A stretch of 64,000 nucleotides of DNA, from contig JAQTTB010000001.1 of NCBI GenBank assembly GCA_028710985.1, positions 523,014-587,013 on the forward strand. Direction: 5' to 3'. This document shows, one piece after another, positions 3,301 through 49,232 of the stretch (positions within the stretch are counted from its first letter, which is position 1; each line of letters opens with the position of its first letter). A program made the translations under genes and the position numbers. This DNA is from Patescibacteria group bacterium (GTDB lineage: Bacteria > Patescibacteriota > Patescibacteriia > JAHJFT01). The notes below the pieces were generated by a model that searched no databases, was not told where the DNA came from, and saw only the letters and a list, made by a program, of their open reading frames with translations.

Positions 3301-3769
3301 GTTTGCAAGAATTGAGGACACATCCGGAGATATTGAACTTATTATTTTTCCCAATACCTACCGTGATTTTAGCGCCGTTTGGCAGGCGGATAACACGATA
3401 ATCGTTTCCGGAAAAATTTCGGACAAAGATGGGGAACCGAAAGTAATAGTGAACAGCGCCTGCTCCGCGGATAAGGAAAATTGCATGCAGGCGCTTTCCA
3501 TTCTGGAAAACGGCGCCGGCTGGGCGCCGTCCGCGGCTTCTCTTTCGCGCGCGGTGCAGATCGAGATCCCGGGGAGTGCCGCTGGCGAAACTATGGCCCG
3601 GCTCAAGGAGGTACTTCTTGCGTATCCGGGCGGAGAGCGGGTGCGGCTCATAATTGGCAGCGGATACGCGGCCAAAAAAATCGAGCCCGATATTCGCGTG
3701 GATTATTCCGCCGGGCTTGTCGAGGCGGTTGGCGGCCTGCTCGGGCCCGAGAGTATTCGCATGGCGTAG
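302..3769 (+). CDS. dnaE: DNA polymerase III alpha subunit
   Basis: 1155 aa. N-terminal PHP signature HLHTHSHYSLLDG, polymerase core (PDIDLDF, LLKMDFLGL), C-terminal OB-like region. Confidence 0.97.
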   Translation: MKFVHLHTHSHYSLLDGLGKIPALVSRAKELGMPALALTDHGAMYGAIEFYTTCRKEGIKPIIGVEAYVAPNRRFDKRPRIDDGAFHLVLLAETLEGYKNLLRLTSKAYLEGFYYRPRMDKEILREYSRGIIASTACLGGQIPRALMAERFEDAENLVTEYKSIFGADNFFLELQDHPELPEYEILNPRIMDLAKATGTPLIATKDIHYVYPDDRQAQDLLTCVQTGKTVNDTDRLNMANHDASMTSPEHMAEAFAHVPEAIENTVKIAERCNVEIPLGGNILPVFHVPTGESDNAYLRRLCEKGLGDRFPVAGPEIRERLEYELSTIERMGFASYFLIVSDFVNWAKDRGIMVGPGRGSAAGSIVSYVLKITDIDPLRYGLLFERFLNPDRISMPDIDLDFADDRRGEVIEYVVKKYGSDNVAGIITFGTMASRAAVRDVGRVLGWPYGEVDRIAKLIPPPIQGKHIPLVKSVKENPELRAVYEGDARVKELLDLSMKLEGTVRHASQHACGIVISDKPLTEYVPLQAVPDGDIDRVTQYSLHPIEDIGLLKMDFLGLANLTIIQNALDIIGAVYHEKIDIEKIPLDDKKAFELLGRGETTGVFQLESDGMKRYIKELKPTEMEDIIAMVALYRPGPMQWIDSFIRRKHGKERIEYEHPLMENALKNTYGIPVYQEQVMQVSKDMAGFTGGEADTLRKAMGKKIAALMKEMKDKFIKGAVKQGVARDKADKVFTRLEDFAAYGFNKSHATCYAMIAYRTAFLKARYPNCFMAALMNSDSQNIDRITIEVDECRKMGLEVLPPDVNESFGKFAIVPNTNKIRWGLSAIKNLGEDIVKTIVHERKANGNFRDLEDFISRINTKNFNKKSLESLIRSGALDLFGERNQLLQNIEILLEFHRGIQKEIESGQSSLFAGSPEVGRSRLTLRPVPAAPKRERLQWERELLGLYVTEHPFRELEEALGDAITRLSELAHRREGFVKIGGVLTTMKKILTRKNETMLFARIEDTSGDIELIIFPNTYRDFSAVWQADNTIIVSGKISDKDGEPKVIVNSACSADKENCMQALSILENGAGWAPSAASLSRAVQIEIPGSAAGETMARLKEVLLAYPGGERVRLIIGSGYAAKKIEPDIRVDYSAGLVEAVGGLLGPESIRMA

Positions 3770-3825
3770 GTGTTTTTTTAATGTAAAAATGGTATAATAT
3801 TACACACAAATAAAAACACAATTTT

Positions 3826-5019
3826 ATGATACAAGACACTCAAAAACGCCAGGTGACGCGTAAGCCAGTCGCCCATATCGTAAAACAGCGTCCGCCCGCG
3901 GTACGCCTGTACCGCCGGATTGCTATCAGTTTTTTGATTCTGACAATTTTATTACTCGCCTTGGTGGCCTATCTTTCATTCTCTAGCGCCCATATTAAGA
4001 TATTCACGGCCGCCGAAACTGCAAGCGCTGAGTTTGTGGCCGACATCGTCAAGGTGGCGAGCGCGCCTAATCAGGTTGAGGGTAGGATCGTTGAGCGAAT
4101 ATTTGAAAAATCAAAAGAATTTACGCCGTCGGGCGAAGGCAAGACAACGCCAGCCAAGGCCGGCGGGGAAGTAACCATTATTAATAAATATAATAAAGAT
4201 CAGGCGCTCATTGCGACGACGCGTCTTCAGGCGACGGACGGAAAAATTTTTCGTATCGATAAGAGCGTCGTTGTACCGGCCGGCGGCGAGATAAAGGCGA
4301 CTGCTCATGCCGACAAAGAGGGCGCGGAATATGAAATCGGGCCGTCTCATTTCATTATCCCCGGGCTCTGGGAAGGGTTGCGTGACAAGATCTATGCCGA
4401 ATCCGCTTCTCCGATGACCGGCGGAACCGTAACTTTGAAAGTAGTGAGCGCCGACGATCTCACTCGCGCCGAGTCGGAGCTTGCAAGTGAAATATTAGAG
4501 CAGGTCAAGGCCGATTTAATCAGCGAGAACGCGGATCCGCGTTTCTCCAAACCGGTTTTTTCAATTGAAACGTTGGAAAAAGTTTCAGACACAATTCCTG
4601 GGCAGGAGGCTGACAAATTCACAATCAAGCTTAAGGTCAAGGTTATTGCGGTTTTCTATAATGCCGAACAAATGGACGGCGTGATGGCGTCCAAACTAGA
4701 GGAGGCCATGGATAGTGATCACACGCTCGGTGACATCATGGAAGACAGTATTATCTTCACGATTGGCCGCTATGATTCATCAACCGGAATTGTTAATCTC
4801 GCAGTGAGCGCGTTCGGCGAGGCGCGCCTCAAAGAGAACAGCCGGCTTTTGGACAAGCGGAAAATTACCGGCCTTGGCGTGGATGACGCTAAAAAGTATC
4901 TTATGAGTTCGCCGTCAATTGAGAATGTCGAAATTTCCTCAAGCCCGTTCTGGCTCAAGCGCGTCCCGAATTTGGAAGATCATATTGAATATGAAATAAT
5001 TTATGGAGGGACTGAATAA
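3826..5019 (+). CDS. hypothetical N-terminally membrane-anchored protein
   Basis: 397 aa. Single N-terminal TM helix (ISFLILTILLLALVAYLSF) followed by a soluble domain. Extended -10 (TGGTATAAT, 3790..3798) upstream. No family recognised. Confidence 0.7.
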   Translation: MIQDTQKRQVTRKPVAHIVKQRPPAVRLYRRIAISFLILTILLLALVAYLSFSSAHIKIFTAAETASAEFVADIVKVASAPNQVEGRIVERIFEKSKEFTPSGEGKTTPAKAGGEVTIINKYNKDQALIATTRLQATDGKIFRIDKSVVVPAGGEIKATAHADKEGAEYEIGPSHFIIPGLWEGLRDKIYAESASPMTGGTVTLKVVSADDLTRAESELASEILEQVKADLISENADPRFSKPVFSIETLEKVSDTIPGQEADKFTIKLKVKVIAVFYNAEQMDGVMASKLEEAMDSDHTLGDIMEDSIIFTIGRYDSSTGIVNLAVSAFGEARLKENSRLLDKRKITGLGVDDAKKYLMSSPSIENVEISSSPFWLKRVPNLEDHIEYEIIYGGTE

Positions 5020-44459: not shown

Positions 44460-44504
44460 CAAAATAAAAAAAGAACGGCCGTGTAATTATGCGGCCGTTC
44501 TTTT
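44460..44504. repeat. left copy of the duplicated terminator hairpin flanking the RT island
   Basis: CAAAATAAAAAAAGAACGGCCG (22/22 identical to 46293..46314), then a variable loop and GGCCGTTCTTTT. Serves as the rplL terminator. Confidence 0.85.
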
Positions 44505-44513
44505 GATTTTTTT

Positions 44514-44542
44514 AAAAAAAGAGGCATCGCGTTTGCGATGCC
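44514..44542 (-). terminator. intrinsic terminator of the RT gene
   Basis: Stem GGCATCGC / GCGATGCC (44523..44530 / 44535..44542) followed on the minus strand by a T-run (plus-strand A-run 44514..44520). Lies 13 nt after the RT stop. Confidence 0.7.
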
Positions 44543-44554
44543 CGAGCGGCGTAG

Positions 44555-45460
44555 TTAAATACCGAGTTTTCTTAATGCCCTCAGTCCGTTAAAGCGGTCG
44601 ACGAGCTTGGTTTCAGTGCGGTTGTGCGGAGCACAGTATTCGGTCGCCCCCCAGAAAGCGCCCATCATGCCAGCGGCCTGGGCAAAATTTGCACGGCCGC
44701 GTTTGACCGAGTACAGGCGGCCGCGTATCTTGCGCAGATAGTGCCGCGGGATAAAGATGCGGCTGGTCTTATCCATGGCAATGCCGTTGATGACCACCGG
44801 AGCCTTTTGGATGTCGCGGACAATGGATTTCTTATGGTTGATCTGGAATCCAGCCGCGAGAATGATGCGCCGTATCATCTGCCGCTTTCTTTTGCCGATC
44901 GGTTCAGTCGCCGAAAAGGTCAGGTCGTCGAGATAGCGCGTATAGATGATGCCGTGGCGCCGGCAGAATTCGCCGAGCGGCCGGTCAAGAAGTTCGCCGG
45001 CATAGCGGTTGGCAAGATCCGGCGAAGCCGGCGCGCCGGTTGCGAGCCCACCCTCGTCTGCTATGCAGTACTTATTAAGAAAGGCGAGAAGCCCTGTCTC
45101 GTCCTCCATCAGCCGTTCGTCAAGATTCATGAGTATCCCGGCGAGCCGCTCGGCGTCCACGCTCGGATAGAAATTGTGGATGTCGGTGAGGTAGAAAAAG
45201 CGGTTGCCGCGGTGCCGGAGCACATTTTTCTTGGGGGATGAGCCGCGCATCGCGCCGGTGGCGTGCGGCAGGGGATGGTGCTCGAGAAGGTGGCGCCGCA
45301 AGTAAAAGATTAGCCCGCGGTGGACCTGGCGCATCGCGTTATTTGGCGCGTAGAGCGTGCGCATTTTTACGGTCTTCGCTACCGGATTTACGTCTCTGTA
45401 GGTAAATTTGTTGAACCCCGGAGTCCCATCTATGTTTTTCAGAATTATATCAAAGAGCAT
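44555..45460 (-). CDS. retron-type reverse transcriptase (stand-alone, 301 aa)
   Basis: ATG 45460 with AAGGAGG 6 nt upstream. RT motifs in order: RTLYAPNNAMRQVHRGL (1), ATGAMRGSSPKKNVLRH (2, NAxxH-like NVLRH), FFYLTDIHNFYPSV (A), GLATGAPASPDLANRY (B), YTRYLDDLTFS (C), GFQINHKKS (D/E), VVINGIAMD (retron VTG position). Confidence 0.88.
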   Translation of the reverse strand: MLFDIILKNIDGTPGFNKFTYRDVNPVAKTVKMRTLYAPNNAMRQVHRGLIFYLRRHLLEHHPLPHATGAMRGSSPKKNVLRHRGNRFFYLTDIHNFYPSVDAERLAGILMNLDERLMEDETGLLAFLNKYCIADEGGLATGAPASPDLANRYAGELLDRPLGEFCRRHGIIYTRYLDDLTFSATEPIGKRKRQMIRRIILAAGFQINHKKSIVRDIQKAPVVINGIAMDKTSRIFIPRHYLRKIRGRLYSVKRGRANFAQAAGMMGAFWGATEYCAPHNRTETKLVDRFNGLRALRKLGI

Positions 45461-45492
45461 GGCGCCCTCCTTATAGATTTTTGTGTAGGTTG

Positions 45493-45521
45493 ATTTTAGT
45501 ACAGCGCCGAATAAAATGCAA
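45493..45521 (-). promoter_or_regulatory. sigma70-like promoter of the RT gene
   Basis: Minus strand: TTGCAT (45521..45516), 17-nt spacer, TAAAAT (45498..45493). Located between the copy-A terminator and the RT RBS. Confidence 0.55.
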
Positions 45522-45538
45522 GTAAATTTTTTTGGTAT

Positions 45539-45569
45539 AAAAAACGCATCAAACCAGGGGTTTGACGCG
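45539..45569 (-). terminator. intrinsic terminator ending ncRNA copy A
   Basis: 11-bp stem (45545..45555 / 45559..45569) plus U-run (plus-strand A-run 45539..45544). The one non-Watson-Crick position is G-U on the minus strand but A-C on the plus strand. Confidence 0.75.
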
Positions 45570-45914
45570 AAGGGAGAAACCCGATTTTCATCGGGCAGTG
45601 AATTCACAGCGGCGGGTTGGCCAAGTTCGTTGCCCGATTCTGGGTTCTGCGGACAACGATCAAGAGAACAGACTTTGCCGCTGAGGCTTCGATGCAGGGC
45701 CGAAACGGCAGCGCCGAGGCCGCAGGCCGGGGCGCCCTCTGTGCCGAAAGAAGAAGAGAAGGGGCGGATACTATGGCAATTTCCGTTTCCGGAAATCCCG
45801 CTGGCGCACCTTGATGCGCCAACCCTCGTGGGCAAGAGCACTTTGGCGTCCAGCCAGAACCAGGAAACCGTCTTGGCCAACCCGGACTGGACTTGGCTTT
45901 ATCCTATCATAAAC
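45539..45914 (-). ncRNA. RT-associated structured RNA, copy A (RT-proximal)
   Basis: Ends in hairpin plus U-run (45539..45569). Shares helices with copy B. 13-bp long-range helix 45613..45625 / 45872..45884. The 5' end is not determined. Confidence 0.6.
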
Positions 45915-45947
45915 AAAAAAACGCATCAAACCAGGGGGTTTGATGCG
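45915..45947 (-). terminator. intrinsic terminator ending ncRNA copy B
   Basis: Perfect 11-bp stem CGCATCAAACC / GGTTTGATGCG (45922..45932 / 45937..45947) plus a 7-nt U-run on the minus strand. Confidence 0.8.
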
Positions 45948-46292
45948 AAGAGAGAGAGTCCCGACTCGGTCGGGAAGAAAGTGCAGCGGCGGGTTTGAGT
46001 CATTGTCCGCAAGGGACTTTCCGGGCATGGGAGCTTGCCGCTGAAGATACCCGTGGCGTCCGAGGGCACTGAACAACGGGCCGAATCAGCCACTGCGGCC
46101 GCTGATCCGCCTCATGCAGATACCAACGGGAGCGCTTCGGGTTGCCCAGGGGCGATGGGGTACTGTTCAAAGCCCTGGTTTAACCCTTTGGCGCACCTGA
46201 AATGCGCCAAGACGATGAGCACCGAGGATCTCACCCGGAATGAACTAGCTCAAACCCAGCCAAGGTGGCTATGAAGAGGGTAGCATAAAATT
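45915..46292 (-). ncRNA. RT-associated structured RNA, copy B (RT-distal)
   Basis: Ends in hairpin plus U-run (45915..45947). 9-bp long-range helix 45991..45999 / 46249..46257, at the position equivalent to copy A's helix but with a different sequence. The 5' end is not determined. Confidence 0.6.
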
Positions 46293-46336
46293 CAAAATAA
46301 AAAAAGAACGGCCGCGATATCGTGGGCCGTTCTTTT
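46293..46336. repeat. right copy of the duplicated terminator hairpin flanking the RT island
   Basis: Same 22-mer and same 3' arm as 44460..44504. Serves as terminator of the 745-aa gene on the minus strand. Confidence 0.85.
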
Positions 46337-48574
46337 TTATTCGCTGAATCCGAAATTCCAGACGCCGTTGTCGGCCAGCACCCAGATTTGGCGTGCCGTG
46401 CGATCGATGTAAAAACTTTTTATATTCTGCAGGTCGTTCAGGAGGTATTGAGTTTTGAGTTTACCGTCCTTGGCCAGTACTACAACACGTTTTCCGGCCG
46501 GGTCAAGAATAAATATATTGTCCGTACCCTCGGTCGTCCAAATTTGCGTCGCGCCCGTCAGCGCGGGATCAATGGTCGTAGCCGACCAGGATTGTTTTTC
46601 ACCGGTATAGAATTTATAAATTTCACCATTTGATTTCAGGGCGTAAATCGAGCCGTCAATCGTAATGGCGACTGCGTCCGAAAGATTGACATTCGCAGTT
46701 TTAATCCAGGCCGCGCCGGCCGCGAGCCCGGAATCGGGCGAGCGGTGCTGCTTAAATATTTGGTTCGCCGTGGTGTCCAAGACATAAATATTTGAATTCC
46801 AGCCGGCCGCGTCAATAAAGCTCTTTTGTTCGGCCGCGGCGGCGAGGGGAACGTCCCTCCACGAAAGTCCGGCCACGTCAATTTCCGAAGCCCCTGGGCG
46901 CTGGTCGAAAACCAAATATGAATTATCGCCGGATTTGTAAATCGCGGTAATGCTTTGTATATCCGCATTTTCCCAGTCAACTTCCTGCCAGGCATTCGCG
47001 TCGTCGCGCCAGACATAAAGTTCTTTTGCCCCGGAAAGAATCAAAGTTTTATCGGCGTTTCGCAGGAGATAACGAAAGTTAATCGTCTGGCCTTCGGCGC
47101 TGAGCGGCATGTCGGCGACTTTCTCTAAATCGTTTGGAATGACTTCATGGCGGAGCTCTTGGCGTAAAATATCAATTTGGGCGAGAAGTCCCTGTTTGAT
47201 TTCGCGCTGATCGCGCTTTGCTTCCGGTAGCGACTGGATTGCGGATAGCGCTTGGCTCACAAGCTCACGCGTGCGTTCCTCGTCGCCGTAGATCAGGGTA
47301 CTCTCGGCCTCGTCTTTTATTTGAGTGATCTCAATCACTTTATTATTATAAACCGCCTCGTCTTCGCGTGCATGTTTCCGATAGTTGAGATAAATCAGGC
47401 TCCATGCAAAAAGTAGCACCAGGATAAGGGCGATGATAAAAACCGATTTATTTTTCTTGCCGAGATGGCTGAACCAGCCGACCGAGCGGTCTCCGGTTTC
47501 CTGGGCATCGCTCTTATAGCTCGCGATGGTTTCGGCGCGTTTGCCGTGGAAGTTCGTAATGATAAAAAATAAGTTTTTGAAGAAGCGGCCGGTGATGCCG
47601 ATTGCGCGGAGCGTGATGGCACCGATCCAAATAAAGAATTTGGCAATGCTCCGGGGGAGTTCGCGCGGGGTTGGAGCGATTTTTTCCTCATATTTCGGGC
47701 CGCGTATTGGTATCAGTCGTGAAATTACCGCAGTGAGCCCAGCCCAAATCTTTGAGGCAAACCCAGTGCCGCCGCCTAAAAGATATCGGTCGGTTTCCGC
47801 GGTAGTCGCCTTAAGATGCTCAAGCGAACCTCGGAAATTCTTCGGTGCCGCCGCTTCGGTGCCGACCGGGATAAGTTCTTCATAATGCTGGATGATAATG
47901 GCCGTATATCCGCCGCGCAGACTGCCGTGCAAAAGTTCATTGCGCAGATATTCGACGGATTCGACCGGTTTTTTCGCGGTTACAATCGGCAACAGCCGTT
48001 CTTCGGGGAAGGCTTCGGCCAGTTCGGAGTTTGAGATTATTATGGCATCCCCGCTTTGGATGGAGCCGTACATTACATTTTCAAAAATTTTAACGGGATT
48101 AAAATTATCCGGATCGGATTGAACGTTCTTCGTAAGATCAAAAACGCGGTAACCTTTGCCATCCTGCTTCTGGAAAAACATCATTTTATTCTGGCCGATC
48201 GCGGAGAACGAAAGGTCCGTGCCGGAGCAAGCGGCGATTAAGATATTCAATTTCTTAAGATCCACCGGATTGGATTCTTTGGAGATAAAATCCGTGATAT
48301 TTTTATTGGTCGCCTGTAGGGATTTTTCAAACTCCGCGCCAAAGTCAATGCCATGCTCTTCCTGATAAAATTTTTCAATGCCGTCGATAAAGTTTTCGGT
48401 CAAACGTTCGTAGGCTGGATGGATGGAGTCGATTTTAATAATGCCAAAAATAGATCCGCCTTCATGCGCCGCACCCGGTGGAATTTCAAAATTAAAAACG
48501 CGGTTAATGCATTGGCGGTTCGTTGCGCTTTCTAGGAAAAGCTCGTTTATGAGTATCTCCGGCTTCTTTGACAT
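46337..48574 (-). CDS. large hypothetical membrane protein with C-terminal repeat (beta-propeller-like) domain
   Basis: 745 aa. Cytoplasmic N-domain, two TM helices mid-protein. The C-terminal half has recurring hydrophobic-Y/W-V-L-D type strands (IYVLD, IYALK, IFILD, IWVLAD). Confidence 0.75.
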   Translation of the reverse strand: MSKKPEILINELFLESATNRQCINRVFNFEIPPGAAHEGGSIFGIIKIDSIHPAYERLTENFIDGIEKFYQEEHGIDFGAEFEKSLQATNKNITDFISKESNPVDLKKLNILIAACSGTDLSFSAIGQNKMMFFQKQDGKGYRVFDLTKNVQSDPDNFNPVKIFENVMYGSIQSGDAIIISNSELAEAFPEERLLPIVTAKKPVESVEYLRNELLHGSLRGGYTAIIIQHYEELIPVGTEAAAPKNFRGSLEHLKATTAETDRYLLGGGTGFASKIWAGLTAVISRLIPIRGPKYEEKIAPTPRELPRSIAKFFIWIGAITLRAIGITGRFFKNLFFIITNFHGKRAETIASYKSDAQETGDRSVGWFSHLGKKNKSVFIIALILVLLFAWSLIYLNYRKHAREDEAVYNNKVIEITQIKDEAESTLIYGDEERTRELVSQALSAIQSLPEAKRDQREIKQGLLAQIDILRQELRHEVIPNDLEKVADMPLSAEGQTINFRYLLRNADKTLILSGAKELYVWRDDANAWQEVDWENADIQSITAIYKSGDNSYLVFDQRPGASEIDVAGLSWRDVPLAAAAEQKSFIDAAGWNSNIYVLDTTANQIFKQHRSPDSGLAAGAAWIKTANVNLSDAVAITIDGSIYALKSNGEIYKFYTGEKQSWSATTIDPALTGATQIWTTEGTDNIFILDPAGKRVVVLAKDGKLKTQYLLNDLQNIKSFYIDRTARQIWVLADNGVWNFGFSE

Positions 48575-48638: not shown

Positions 48639-49232
48639 ATGCTTGAACAACTCTTTGGTTCACATACCCGGGCGCGCCTGCTAAATTTGTTTTTGCGCAA
48701 TTCGGACAAGTCTTTTTTTGTCCGCGAAATTACCCGGAAAATCCAGTCCCAGATCAATTCGGTACGGCGCGAATTGCGCAATCTGGAGGATGTCGGTTTG
48801 CTTACCTCCACCGAGATGCAGGATGCCGAAGGTAGGGCGCTCCCCAAAACCGCCAAGCGATTTTACCGCGTGAATAAAGATTTTGTTCTGTATCAGGAAT
48901 TGCAGGCCTTGATTTTAAAATCCCAACTCCTGCTCCAGCGTGATCTGCAAAGAAAAATTGATGAACTTGGCACGATCAGTTATTTGGCGCTCACCGGTTC
49001 ATTCCTCGGGCGCGAGGATATGCCGATTGACGTGTTTATTGTCGGACGAATCAGCGGTGAAAAGCTCGCCCGCCTCATCAAAAAGTTTGAAAAATCTTTG
49101 GGCGAAGAAATCAATTATACCGCCATGACGCTCAAAGAATTTAATTATCGCCGTCAACTCACGGATAAATTTCTTTTCTCCATACTCGAGGGTCCCAAGA
49201 TTGTTCTCATTGATAAACTGGAAGTTAGCTAA
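48639..49232 (+). CDS. winged-helix DNA-binding protein
   Basis: 197 aa. N-terminal wHTH (TRARLLNLFL...FFVREITRKIQSQINSVRRELRNLEDVGLL). Confidence 0.65.
   Translation: MLEQLFGSHTRARLLNLFLRNSDKSFFVREITRKIQSQINSVRRELRNLEDVGLLTSTEMQDAEGRALPKTAKRFYRVNKDFVLYQELQALILKSQLLLQRDLQRKIDELGTISYLALTGSFLGREDMPIDVFIVGRISGEKLARLIKKFEKSLGEEINYTAMTLKEFNYRRQLTDKFLFSILEGPKIVLIDKLEVS

Follow-up and report, generated by a model that had tools for sequence, protein, structure and literature searches.

A stretch of 64,000 nt from a Patescibacteria group bacterium (GenBank assembly GCA_028710985.1, contig JAQTTB010000001.1, positions 523,014 to 587,013 of the forward strand; hereafter the window, whose own numbering is used throughout) carries two tandem non-coding repeats next to a reverse transcriptase (RT) gene, which raises the question of what these repeats are and whether they work with the enzyme. 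We found that they are members of an RNA family that had not been described before and that accompanies a retron-type RT in Patescibacteria, apparently without an effector. Here a retron-clade RT is paired, in organisms whose genomes are minimal, with a conserved and covarying RNA partner of unusual complexity and with no protein effector. About 80% of the RTs in bacteria of the candidate phyla radiation have been reported to belong to diversity-generating retroelements (DGRs), and the RTs of these bacteria are described almost entirely as such (PMC8632793); within the terms of our literature search, no paper ties retrons or RT-associated non-coding RNAs (ncRNAs) to Patescibacteria.

Two tandem RNA units and the neighboring reverse transcriptase

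The interval 45539-46295 consists of two head-to-tail units with a period of 377-378 nt, each corresponding to a minus-strand RNA of ~350 nt and both located upstream of the RT gene at 45460-44555. An earlier examination of the letters of the window alone (the sequence-only reading) had proposed a duplication with a 377-nt period and two minus-strand terminators of 11 pairs followed by a T-run, and both terminators were found, as G+C-rich hairpins, at 45569-45545 and 45947-45922. As it had also described, the terminator of copy A has a single imperfect pair, which reads G.U if the minus strand is transcribed and A.C if the plus strand is. The main features of the locus are the following:

44522..44543, minus strand: terminator-like hairpin 3' of the RT gene (terminator scan)
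44555..45460, minus strand: RT gene, 301 amino acids (aa), YLDD catalytic motif; ribosome-binding site AAGGAGG at 45472-45466 and −10-like TAAAAT at 45498-45493
45539..45909, minus strand: ncRNA gene copy A, RT-proximal, from the −10-like TGATAGGAT (45909-45901) to the terminator T-run (45544-45539); RNA of ~350 nt
45545..45569, minus strand: intrinsic terminator of copy A, 11 bp with one G.U pair, then a T-run
45580..45595, minus strand: small hairpin CCCGA-UGAAAA-UCGGG of copy A, between the M3 motif (see below) and the terminator, not established as a family feature
45915..46284, minus strand: ncRNA gene copy B, distal, from the −10-like TGCTACCCT (46284-46276) to the terminator T-run (45921-45915)
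45922..45947, minus strand: intrinsic terminator of copy B, 11 bp, perfect, then a T-run

The TAAAAT box and the ribosome-binding site of the RT gene sit between the terminator of copy A and the RT start, and a TGnTAnnnT box, read from the sequence with low confidence, lies 5' of each unit. Both units are non-coding. Their mutual similarity is weak but significant (nhmmer E = 1e-7, each matching only the other), with an overall identity of ~62% that reaches 84% from M3 to the 3' end and is ~67% of the aligned columns upstream of M2. Compared with shuffled sequences, the minus strand folds better than expected (z = −5.3 for copy A and −3.7 for copy B), and the plus strand gives weaker values (z = −2.3 and −3.0). 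From their sequence, we take the two repeats to be real, separately transcribed genes for structured RNAs.

Four elements had been reported as shared by the two copies, and all of them lie where they had been placed: hairpin 1 (CCCGA..TCGGG, at 45580-45595 in copy A and 45960-45974 in copy B), helix 2 (CAGCGGC/GCCGCTG in each), hairpin 3 (TGGCGCA..TGCGCCA in each) and helix 4. The last of these is 9 bp long in copy B and 13 bp long in copy A, where it can be lengthened to 31 nt at 81%. It had been overlooked that helices 2 and 4 cross, the order on the plus strand being h2a < P1a < h2b < P1b, so that they do not fit together in one nested fold and imply either a pseudoknot or alternative folds.

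Sequence comparisons place the RT in the retron or retron-like clade. The retron RT models of PADLOC match it (best RT_II-A, E = 1.6e-34, with many others at ~1e-30), its core is a fingers-palm domain (Pfam RVT_1), and when a profile built from 31 RTs of the family was compared with solved structures, the top 12 matches were all retron RTs, led by Ec83 (3.7e-29) and Ec86 (3e-28), then Ec78 and Ec67, with a group II RT at 6e-9 and Drt2 at 2e-7. Retron RTs are marked by a region X with the motif NAXXH and a region Y with VTG, in which the H and the G are the most conserved residues (PMC7736814). The family alignment shows KNVxRH for region X, with N80 nearly invariant and H84 invariant, and I-N-G for region Y, with G227 invariant; the H and the G are kept, with V in the place of A and N in the place of T. 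Among the NCBIfam models, retron_St85 scores 116 bits, under its cut-off of 235, Drt2 scores 25.8 bits (cut-off 390), the group II model TIGR04416 22.4 bits (cut-off 300), and Drt3a falls within 22-32 bits. The score under the retron cut-off suggests a separate subclade of retron RTs. An identical RT protein is annotated in a Patescibacteria contig (P0001).

A covarying RNA family linked to the reverse transcriptase

A protein search returned ~65 RT homologues at 40-50% identity, and pattern scans yielded 39 genome loci and 62 metagenome loci. These ~100 homologous loci are almost wholly from Patescibacteria, including Parcubacteria/Paceibacterota, Kerfeldbacteria, Zambryskibacteria, Vogelbacteria, Campbellbacteria, Harrisonbacteria and Andersenbacteria, as well as genomes labelled Saccharibacteria. 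In nearly all of them a non-coding gap of 350-1700 nt adjoins the RT gene. A conserved motif, ACCUCAGCG, is enriched in two places on the RT strand, immediately before the RT start and immediately after the RT stop.

The units share one order from 5' to 3': P1a, M1, hpA, hpB, a GGUUCG-like element with a pyrimidine tract, a hypervariable segment, M2, P1b, M3 and the 3' end. P1a is a variable arm of ~40 nt to which P1b is complementary. M1 reads YUGAGG, M2 CCUCAGCGG and M3 CCGCUGA; hpA has a stem of 8-10 bp and a loop near YCAW, while hpB is capped by GAAA, GACA, GCAA or UUCG. At the same offset after hpB, 32 of the 39 units aligned (see below) carry a pyrimidine run of at least 8 nt (8-23 nt) whose composition is kept and whose sequence is not. 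The hypervariable segment lies between this tract and M2, the distance from hpB to M2 ranging from 39 to 223 nt, and the 3' end is either the ribosome-binding site of the RT gene or a small hairpin with a terminator. In these terms, hairpin 3 is hpA, helix 2 is the pairing of M2 with M3, and helix 4 is the distal part of P1. The parts identified in the two copies are:

45872..45884, minus strand: P1a distal arm of copy A (CGGGUUGGCCAAG), 5' arm of the terminal closing helix, 12/12 pairs
45824..45828, minus strand: M1 of copy A (CGAGG), pairs with CCUC(A) of M2 (covariance-model alignment)
45800..45823, minus strand: hpA of copy A (GUUGGCGCAU-caag-GUGCGCCAGC), the former hairpin 3 (complementarity; family pairing)
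45775..45799, minus strand: hpB of copy A (GGGAUUUCCG-GAAA-CGGAAAUUGCC), with a GNRA tetraloop cap
45746..45764, minus strand: pyrimidine tract of copy A (CCCCUUCUCUUCUUCUUUC), at the same offset after hpB as in the family
45687..45745, minus strand: variable region (hpC) of copy A, candidate template, holding a second M2-like motif, GCCUCGGCGCUG, at 45721-45709
45678..45686, minus strand: M2 of copy A (CCUCAGCGG), with the A-G-C at 45682-45680 invariant in 39/39 units
45613..45625, minus strand: P1b distal arm of copy A (CUUGGCCAACCCG), directly abutting M3
45605..45612, minus strand: M3 of copy A (CCGCUGUG), 3' partner of M2, the former helix 2
46249..46257, minus strand: P1a distal arm of copy B (GGGUUUGAG) (inverted-repeat complementarity)
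46188..46210, minus strand: hpA of copy B (UUGGCGCAUU-uca-GGUGCGCCAA) (complementarity)
46139..46186, minus strand: expanded hpB region of copy B (GGGUU..CCAGGG..CCCUGG..AACCC), read from the sequence
46038..46046, minus strand: M2 of copy B (CUUCAGCGG) (motif)
45991..45999, minus strand: P1b distal arm of copy B (CUCAAACCC) (inverted-repeat complementarity)
45984..45989, minus strand: M3 of copy B (CCGCUG) (motif)

M2 has two alternative partners, the upstream UGAGG of M1 and the downstream CCGCUGA of M3. M1 and M3 are direct repeats located at opposite ends of P1 and both complementary to M2; because of this position, the full-length P1 and the M2:M3 helix would be mutually exclusive, and sterically M2:M3 could coexist with no more than the distal part of P1, in a pseudoknot.

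Covariation was evaluated on an alignment of 39 units assembled block by block around the motifs and filled out with N and artificial spacers, which was chosen because a whole-unit MAFFT alignment misaligned the variable arms. The helices behaved as follows, the percentages of paired cells being biased upward for hpA, hpB and P1a for the reason given in the next section:

P1 distal, 12 bp: 90% of cells paired, 12/12 pairs altered on both sides
hpA: 94.3% of cells paired, 9/9 pairs altered on both sides
hpB: 85.6% of cells paired
M1:M2: 90.8% of cells paired, one position being GC in 25 units and AU in 8
M2:M3: 84% of cells paired, A-G-C and G-C-U invariant in 39/39 units

Compensated variants of M2:M3 were found in six units (L008, L049, L007b, L058, L088 and L011c). 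The overall covariation score was 0.83. Shuffled alignments gave 0.25, none of the 500 shuffles scoring as high as the real alignment, and slid partners did not exceed 0.23. In an alignment-free test of P1, cognate arms gave a mean duplex energy of −49.6 kcal/mol and non-cognate arms −34.0 (standard deviation 7.7); in 20 of 34 units the cognate partner ranked first in its row, among them copy A, whose duplex energy of −54.9 kcal/mol beats every non-cognate partner. The distal arm of P1a lies 35-45 nt upstream of M1 in most units, a spacing that was not imposed. Additionally, G.U pairs are frequent in hpA and hpB. An RNA made from the opposite strand would have A.C mismatches at these places, so the pairs agree with transcription from the RT strand. 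The claim of the sequence-only reading that the shared helices covary thus holds in part. When copies A and B are compared with each other, compensatory changes occur only in helix 4, at 3 of 12 positions, and the stems of helices 1-3 are identical; across the 39 related units, covariation extends to helices 2, 3 and 4.

The search for homologues with a covariance model, which that reading had recommended, was carried out with a model of the M1-to-M2 junction (R1; M1-hpA-hpB-pyrimidine tract-M2) built from 18 units and no window sequence. On 100 loci, R1 gave 54 matches at E ≤ 0.1, 36 of them outside the seed set and all 54 on the RT strand, which, together with the folding of the minus strand, supports the proposal that these are structured RNAs on the RT strand. 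In the 64-kb window it matched copy A at 45832-45709 on the minus strand (29.7 bits, E = 2.6e-4), and the sole other match (9.4 bits, E = 2.2) was the M2 of copy A itself at 45695-45676. Within copy A, the model preferred the GCCUCGGCGCUG of the variable region (45709-45721, minus strand) over the true CCUCAGCGG at 45686-45678. A comparable internal stretch, AUGAGG..AUCAGCGGCC, is present in copy B at ~46118-46090.

Copy B has retained hpA, M2, M3, P1 and the terminator, with an expanded hpB, a degenerate M1 and no pyrimidine tract. Its membership in the family follows from its homology to copy A and from its own hpA, M2, M3 and P1. It is a diverged paralogue of copy A that may be decaying. 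Two 12-nt segments in the P1b of copy A (45648-45659) and copy B (46000-46011) are reverse complements of each other at 11 of 12 positions, which could reflect either a part of the P1 helix strand-swapped between the copies or pairing of A with B in trans.

Three further observations concern the motifs. The GGUUCG element forms, with a short stem just after hpB (for example CGGG-UUCGAUU-CCCG; L065 at ~2680-2700, L011 at ~4330-4345, and many other units), a structure that resembles the T-loop of tRNA. The occurrence of both this structure and the GNRA loop of hpB points to a tertiary contact between loops. In the downstream units of L062, L070, L055 and L071, an M2-like CCUUCAG or CCUCAG occurs in the first 10-15 nt after the TACAAT/TATAAT box, and this leader sequence is a further possible pairing partner for M1 or M3. 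A pairing of the purine-rich spacer between M1 and hpA with the pyrimidine tract, checked by eye in a handful of units, was inconsistent and was dropped.

More than 45 loci, spread over different classes of Patescibacteria, contain both the RNA and the RT, in the same orientation. This linkage and the strong covariation effectively refute the idea that the repeats are unrelated small RNAs or degenerate repeats that merely happen to lie beside the RT, an explanation that could draw on the failure of copy B to match the family model and to which we give hardly any credence. A match to a known housekeeping RNA family, which the sequence-only reading had named as an outcome that would overturn it, was not obtained when the window was scanned with Rfam 15 at the gathering threshold.

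The arrangement of the RNA varies among loci. It is located either in the 5' untranslated region of the RT gene or in a separately transcribed unit, upstream or downstream of the RT, in 1-3 copies per locus. Two units are present in L005, L006, L007, L015 and the window; L004 carries one before and one after the RT, and L009 two after it. In L011, from Kerfeldbacteria, three tandem units have their own terminators (T-tails at 4119, 4466 and 4833; region 3755-5000), and a fragment similar to hpA/hpB lies within the RT leader (~4906-4950). In at least 15 loci (including L008, L013, L019, L023, L048, L051, L055, L062, L067, L070-L073, L075 and L081), the RNA is downstream of the RT with its own TATAAT- or TACAAT-like box and terminator. 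Consequently, the two copies and the terminators between them, which had been regarded as oddities of this locus, are normal variation within the family. These arrangements also bear on another possible role of the RNAs, as leaders that would regulate the expression of the RT in cis by pairing M2 with either M1 or M3. Riboswitch-like leaders typically have pairings that exclude one another, and M3 lies 5-25 nt upstream of the ribosome-binding site of the RT in many loci. However, a strong terminator ends each unit of the window and the RT has its own −10-like box beyond it (low confidence), the RNA follows the RT in the loci just listed, and tandem arrays reach 3 units. The downstream and terminator-separated arrangements contradict such a role, which we regard as very improbable.

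Effector genes were sought in 101 loci by all-against-all clustering of the open reading frames (ORFs) in a region that begins ~3.5 kb upstream of the RT start and ends 4.5 kb downstream of it. The RT was common to 99 loci and the next-largest cluster to 7. Since the RT is the sole shared ORF, the system appears to have no conserved effector gene. The neighbors are housekeeping genes, such as rplJ and rplL in the window and leuS in L001. In the window, the 745-aa protein encoded upstream of the RNA genes (46337-48574, minus strand) has no Pfam or PADLOC match, and a 197-aa protein (48639-49232, plus strand), ~2.3 kb from the RNA genes and beyond the 745-aa gene, matches the PADLOC candidate defense family PDC-M05A (E = 1.2e-27); neither is kept beside the RT in other loci.

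The RT and the two RNA genes form a module (44503-46303) that is exactly flanked by the only two copies of a palindromic terminator in the 64-kb window:

44471..44502, no strand assigned: palindromic bidirectional terminator AAGAACGGCC..GGCCGTTCTT, left module boundary, one of the two window copies
46304..46334, no strand assigned: second copy of the palindromic terminator, right module boundary (inverted-repeat search)

This arrangement suggests that a 1.8-kb cassette was inserted into, and duplicated, the bidirectional terminator shared by the convergent rplL and 745-aa genes, and a mobile-cassette origin of the module is plausible. A stronger proposal would be that the RT and the RNA are a selfish or mobile retroelement cassette, in which the RNA serves its own propagation and no host function. 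In its favor are the bracketing by the two terminators, as if the module had been inserted into a shared one, and the variation of the flanking genes among loci. Against it, each locus has a single RT, close relatives keep their neighbors (leuS in L001, L042 and L044; an rplL-like sequence in L018), neither an integrase nor an endonuclease is present, and the RT is not enclosed by the RNA, unlike in a group II intron. In addition, phage and viral collections contain only distant relatives of the RT family and almost none in viral contigs. We therefore consider this proposal quite unlikely.

A proposed mechanism and its alternatives

Starting from an RNA family with a constant strand, a covarying structure, linkage to the RT and no conserved effector, the interpretation that we favor, with somewhat better than even confidence, is that the units are paralogues, each encoding a structured RNA that acts in trans as a partner of the retron-clade RT beside them, and that complementary DNA (cDNA) is made from this RNA in a retron-like manner. 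That the RNA acts in trans and is not a leader is indicated by the promoter-like boxes and terminators of the window units and by the location downstream of the RT in many loci. What we infer beyond this is the binding of the RNA by the RT, the synthesis of cDNA, the priming site and the switch, which could operate as follows. A long imperfect helix, P1 extended by M1:M2, would pair the 5' and 3' regions and would close a junction containing hpA, hpB with its GNRA tetraloop, the pyrimidine tract and the hypervariable segment, a layout like that of msr-msd. The RT would bind the conserved hairpins and copy a part of the RNA into a short cDNA, the template being the variable segment beside the 3' arm or, alternatively, one arm of P1. 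A conserved guanosine might serve for priming where the closing helix meets the interior, either the invariant G in the CAGC of M2 or a G at the end of M1. M3, as a direct repeat of M1 just 3' of P1, would give M2 a second partner, so that the RNA could switch between a closed fold (P1 with M1:M2) and an open fold, in which M2:M3 forms a hairpin with the 3' arm in its loop. Because copies A and B differ mainly in P1 and in the variable region, they would give two different products. The biological role would probably be phage defense; a comparison of the RNAs with phage genomes gave no guide-like matches.

Several observations weigh against this interpretation. The hpA, hpB and P1a blocks of the alignment were located through their complementarity, which biases the percentage of paired cells upward. 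R1 does not match copy B as a full unit, even when run without filters. The Rfam 15 scan found no family at the gathering threshold in the window and no retron RNA at E ≤ 10 in 45300-46500, the RT scores far under the NCBIfam retron cut-offs, and the clustering revealed no effector gene conserved among the 101 loci. The variable stem-loop has only 4-6 bp in minimal units. The sole invariant G (39/39 units; 45681 in copy A) belongs to the CAGC of M2, on the strand of the 3' arm, and is paired in the M2:M3 fold. Finally, the synthesis of cDNA is a step that we infer.

The lack of a conserved effector is also what would be expected if the RNA were the scaffold and template of a non-retron synthesis, as in DRT2 or DRT9, with the DNA product itself as the effector. 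This could consist of repeated copying of the pyrimidine tract into purine-rich DNA or of rolling-circle copying between M1 and M3. The tract of 8-23 nt that 32 of 39 units carry at a constant position, and that contains nothing but pyrimidines, agrees with the former and makes a DRT9-like reiterated copying possible, and the complementarity of the direct repeats M1 and M3 to M2 agrees with the latter. However, the RT is far closer to retron RTs than to Drt2 or Drt3a, M1 and M3 lie at opposite ends of P1 and not next to each other, and copy B has no pyrimidine tract. Moreover, the M1-to-M3 unit length has no bias toward multiples of 3 (remainders 0/1/2 in 15/10/14 units), and a search for a never-ending ORF like that of DRT2 found stop-free frames in concatemers, on either strand, in just 5 of 39 units. 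We thus judge a non-retron synthesis unlikely, although less so than a selfish cassette.

A further possibility, which we advance tentatively and with clearly less confidence than the retron-like synthesis of cDNA, is that the family represents an effector-less system specific to Patescibacteria, made of a retron-derived RT and a fold-switching RNA of 230-350 nt, with the DNA product as its output, and forming a new class beside retrons, DRT2 and DRT9. Duplication and diversification of the RNA gene, present in 1-3 copies, giving several products would be part of such a system. If the RNA is indeed reverse-transcribed, the family bears on how retron-type enzymes work without an effector and on whether RNA fold-switching controls priming, and it would add compact RT-RNA pairs (301 aa and ~250 nt) to the pool available for retron-based DNA production.

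Comparison with known systems

A DGR was rejected because there is no pair of template and variable repeats, no second repeat in a gene, and the RT is of retron type; no further copy of any part of 45464-46300 was found within the 64-kb window. Group II introns and the G2L RTs share with the family the fingers-palm core of the RT (RVT_1). In group II introns, however, the RT is encoded inside the RNA, which is not the case here, and an intron was rejected in view of the 22.4 bits obtained with TIGR04416, compared with a cut-off of 300, and of the lack of intron RNA domains in the Rfam scan.

DRT2, in which a UG2 RT and an ncRNA produce a rolling-circle cDNA that yields a neo gene, resembles the family in combining an RT with a structured ncRNA and no effector, and in the direct repeats that flank a possible template. 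It differs in that the family RT is distant from its RT (2e-7, compared with 1e-29 for retron RTs) and in that the repeats of the family are not joined by a stem; membership in DRT2 was rejected on the Drt2 score of 25.8 bits against a cut-off of 390 and on the lack of a never-ending reading frame. DRT9, an RT with an ncRNA that synthesizes homopolymer DNA, is also effector-less, and the low-complexity tract of the family could serve as a reiterated template like the one it uses; however, this tract is a mixture of C and U with a variable sequence and not a U-run, and no DRT9/UG28 model was among the best 25 of the 62 PADLOC matches.

The closest parallels are with retrons (such as Ec86, Ec83 and Eco11). 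These share with the family a retron-clade RT with X- and Y-like motifs, an ncRNA on the RT strand, usually just upstream, and terminal inverted repeats that hybridize around two conserved hairpins and a variable region, which corresponds to the described retron ncRNA layout of hybridized ends enclosing hairpins and a variable region (PMC7736814). In this layout P1 with M1:M2 would take the place of a1/a2, hpA and hpB that of the msr hairpins, and the variable segment that of msd. The analogy with a1/a2 drawn by the sequence-only reading is reasonable, the closing duplex being real, covarying, family-wide and located where a1/a2 would be; a difference is the lack of an invariant G directly after the 5' arm, the nucleotide following the distal arm of P1a being a G in 11 of 17 units (by eye) and the Gs of M1 not being invariant. 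Similarly, the layout of a 5'-3' closing duplex agrees with retrons, but M3 competes with the closing helix. The broader likeness to retron RNAs is upheld by the retron-type RT, and it is not upheld by Rfam or by a conserved effector; the variable hairpin has 4-6 bp in minimal units, compared with the 10-50 bp of classic retron msd stems (PMC7736814).

Other differences from retrons are the size of the RNA (230-350 nt, with a closing helix of ~40 bp), the additional M3 with its alternative fold or pseudoknot, the pyrimidine tract, the absence of a conserved effector gene and of an Rfam match, the RT scores under the curated retron cut-offs, and the tandem arrangement in 1-3 copies, of which some have a promoter-like box and a terminator to themselves and some lie downstream of the RT. 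The CCUUA-G-CG of Ec86 is resembled by the CCUCA-G-CG of the family, which looks like an a1 followed by the branching G. In summary, the RT is retron-derived, and the novelty lies in the RNA family, in its M1/M3 alternative pairing and in the apparent absence of an effector; together they probably constitute a new kind of RNA-plus-RT system, whose mechanism stands a fair chance of differing enough from those of retrons, DRT2 and DRT9 to define a new class.

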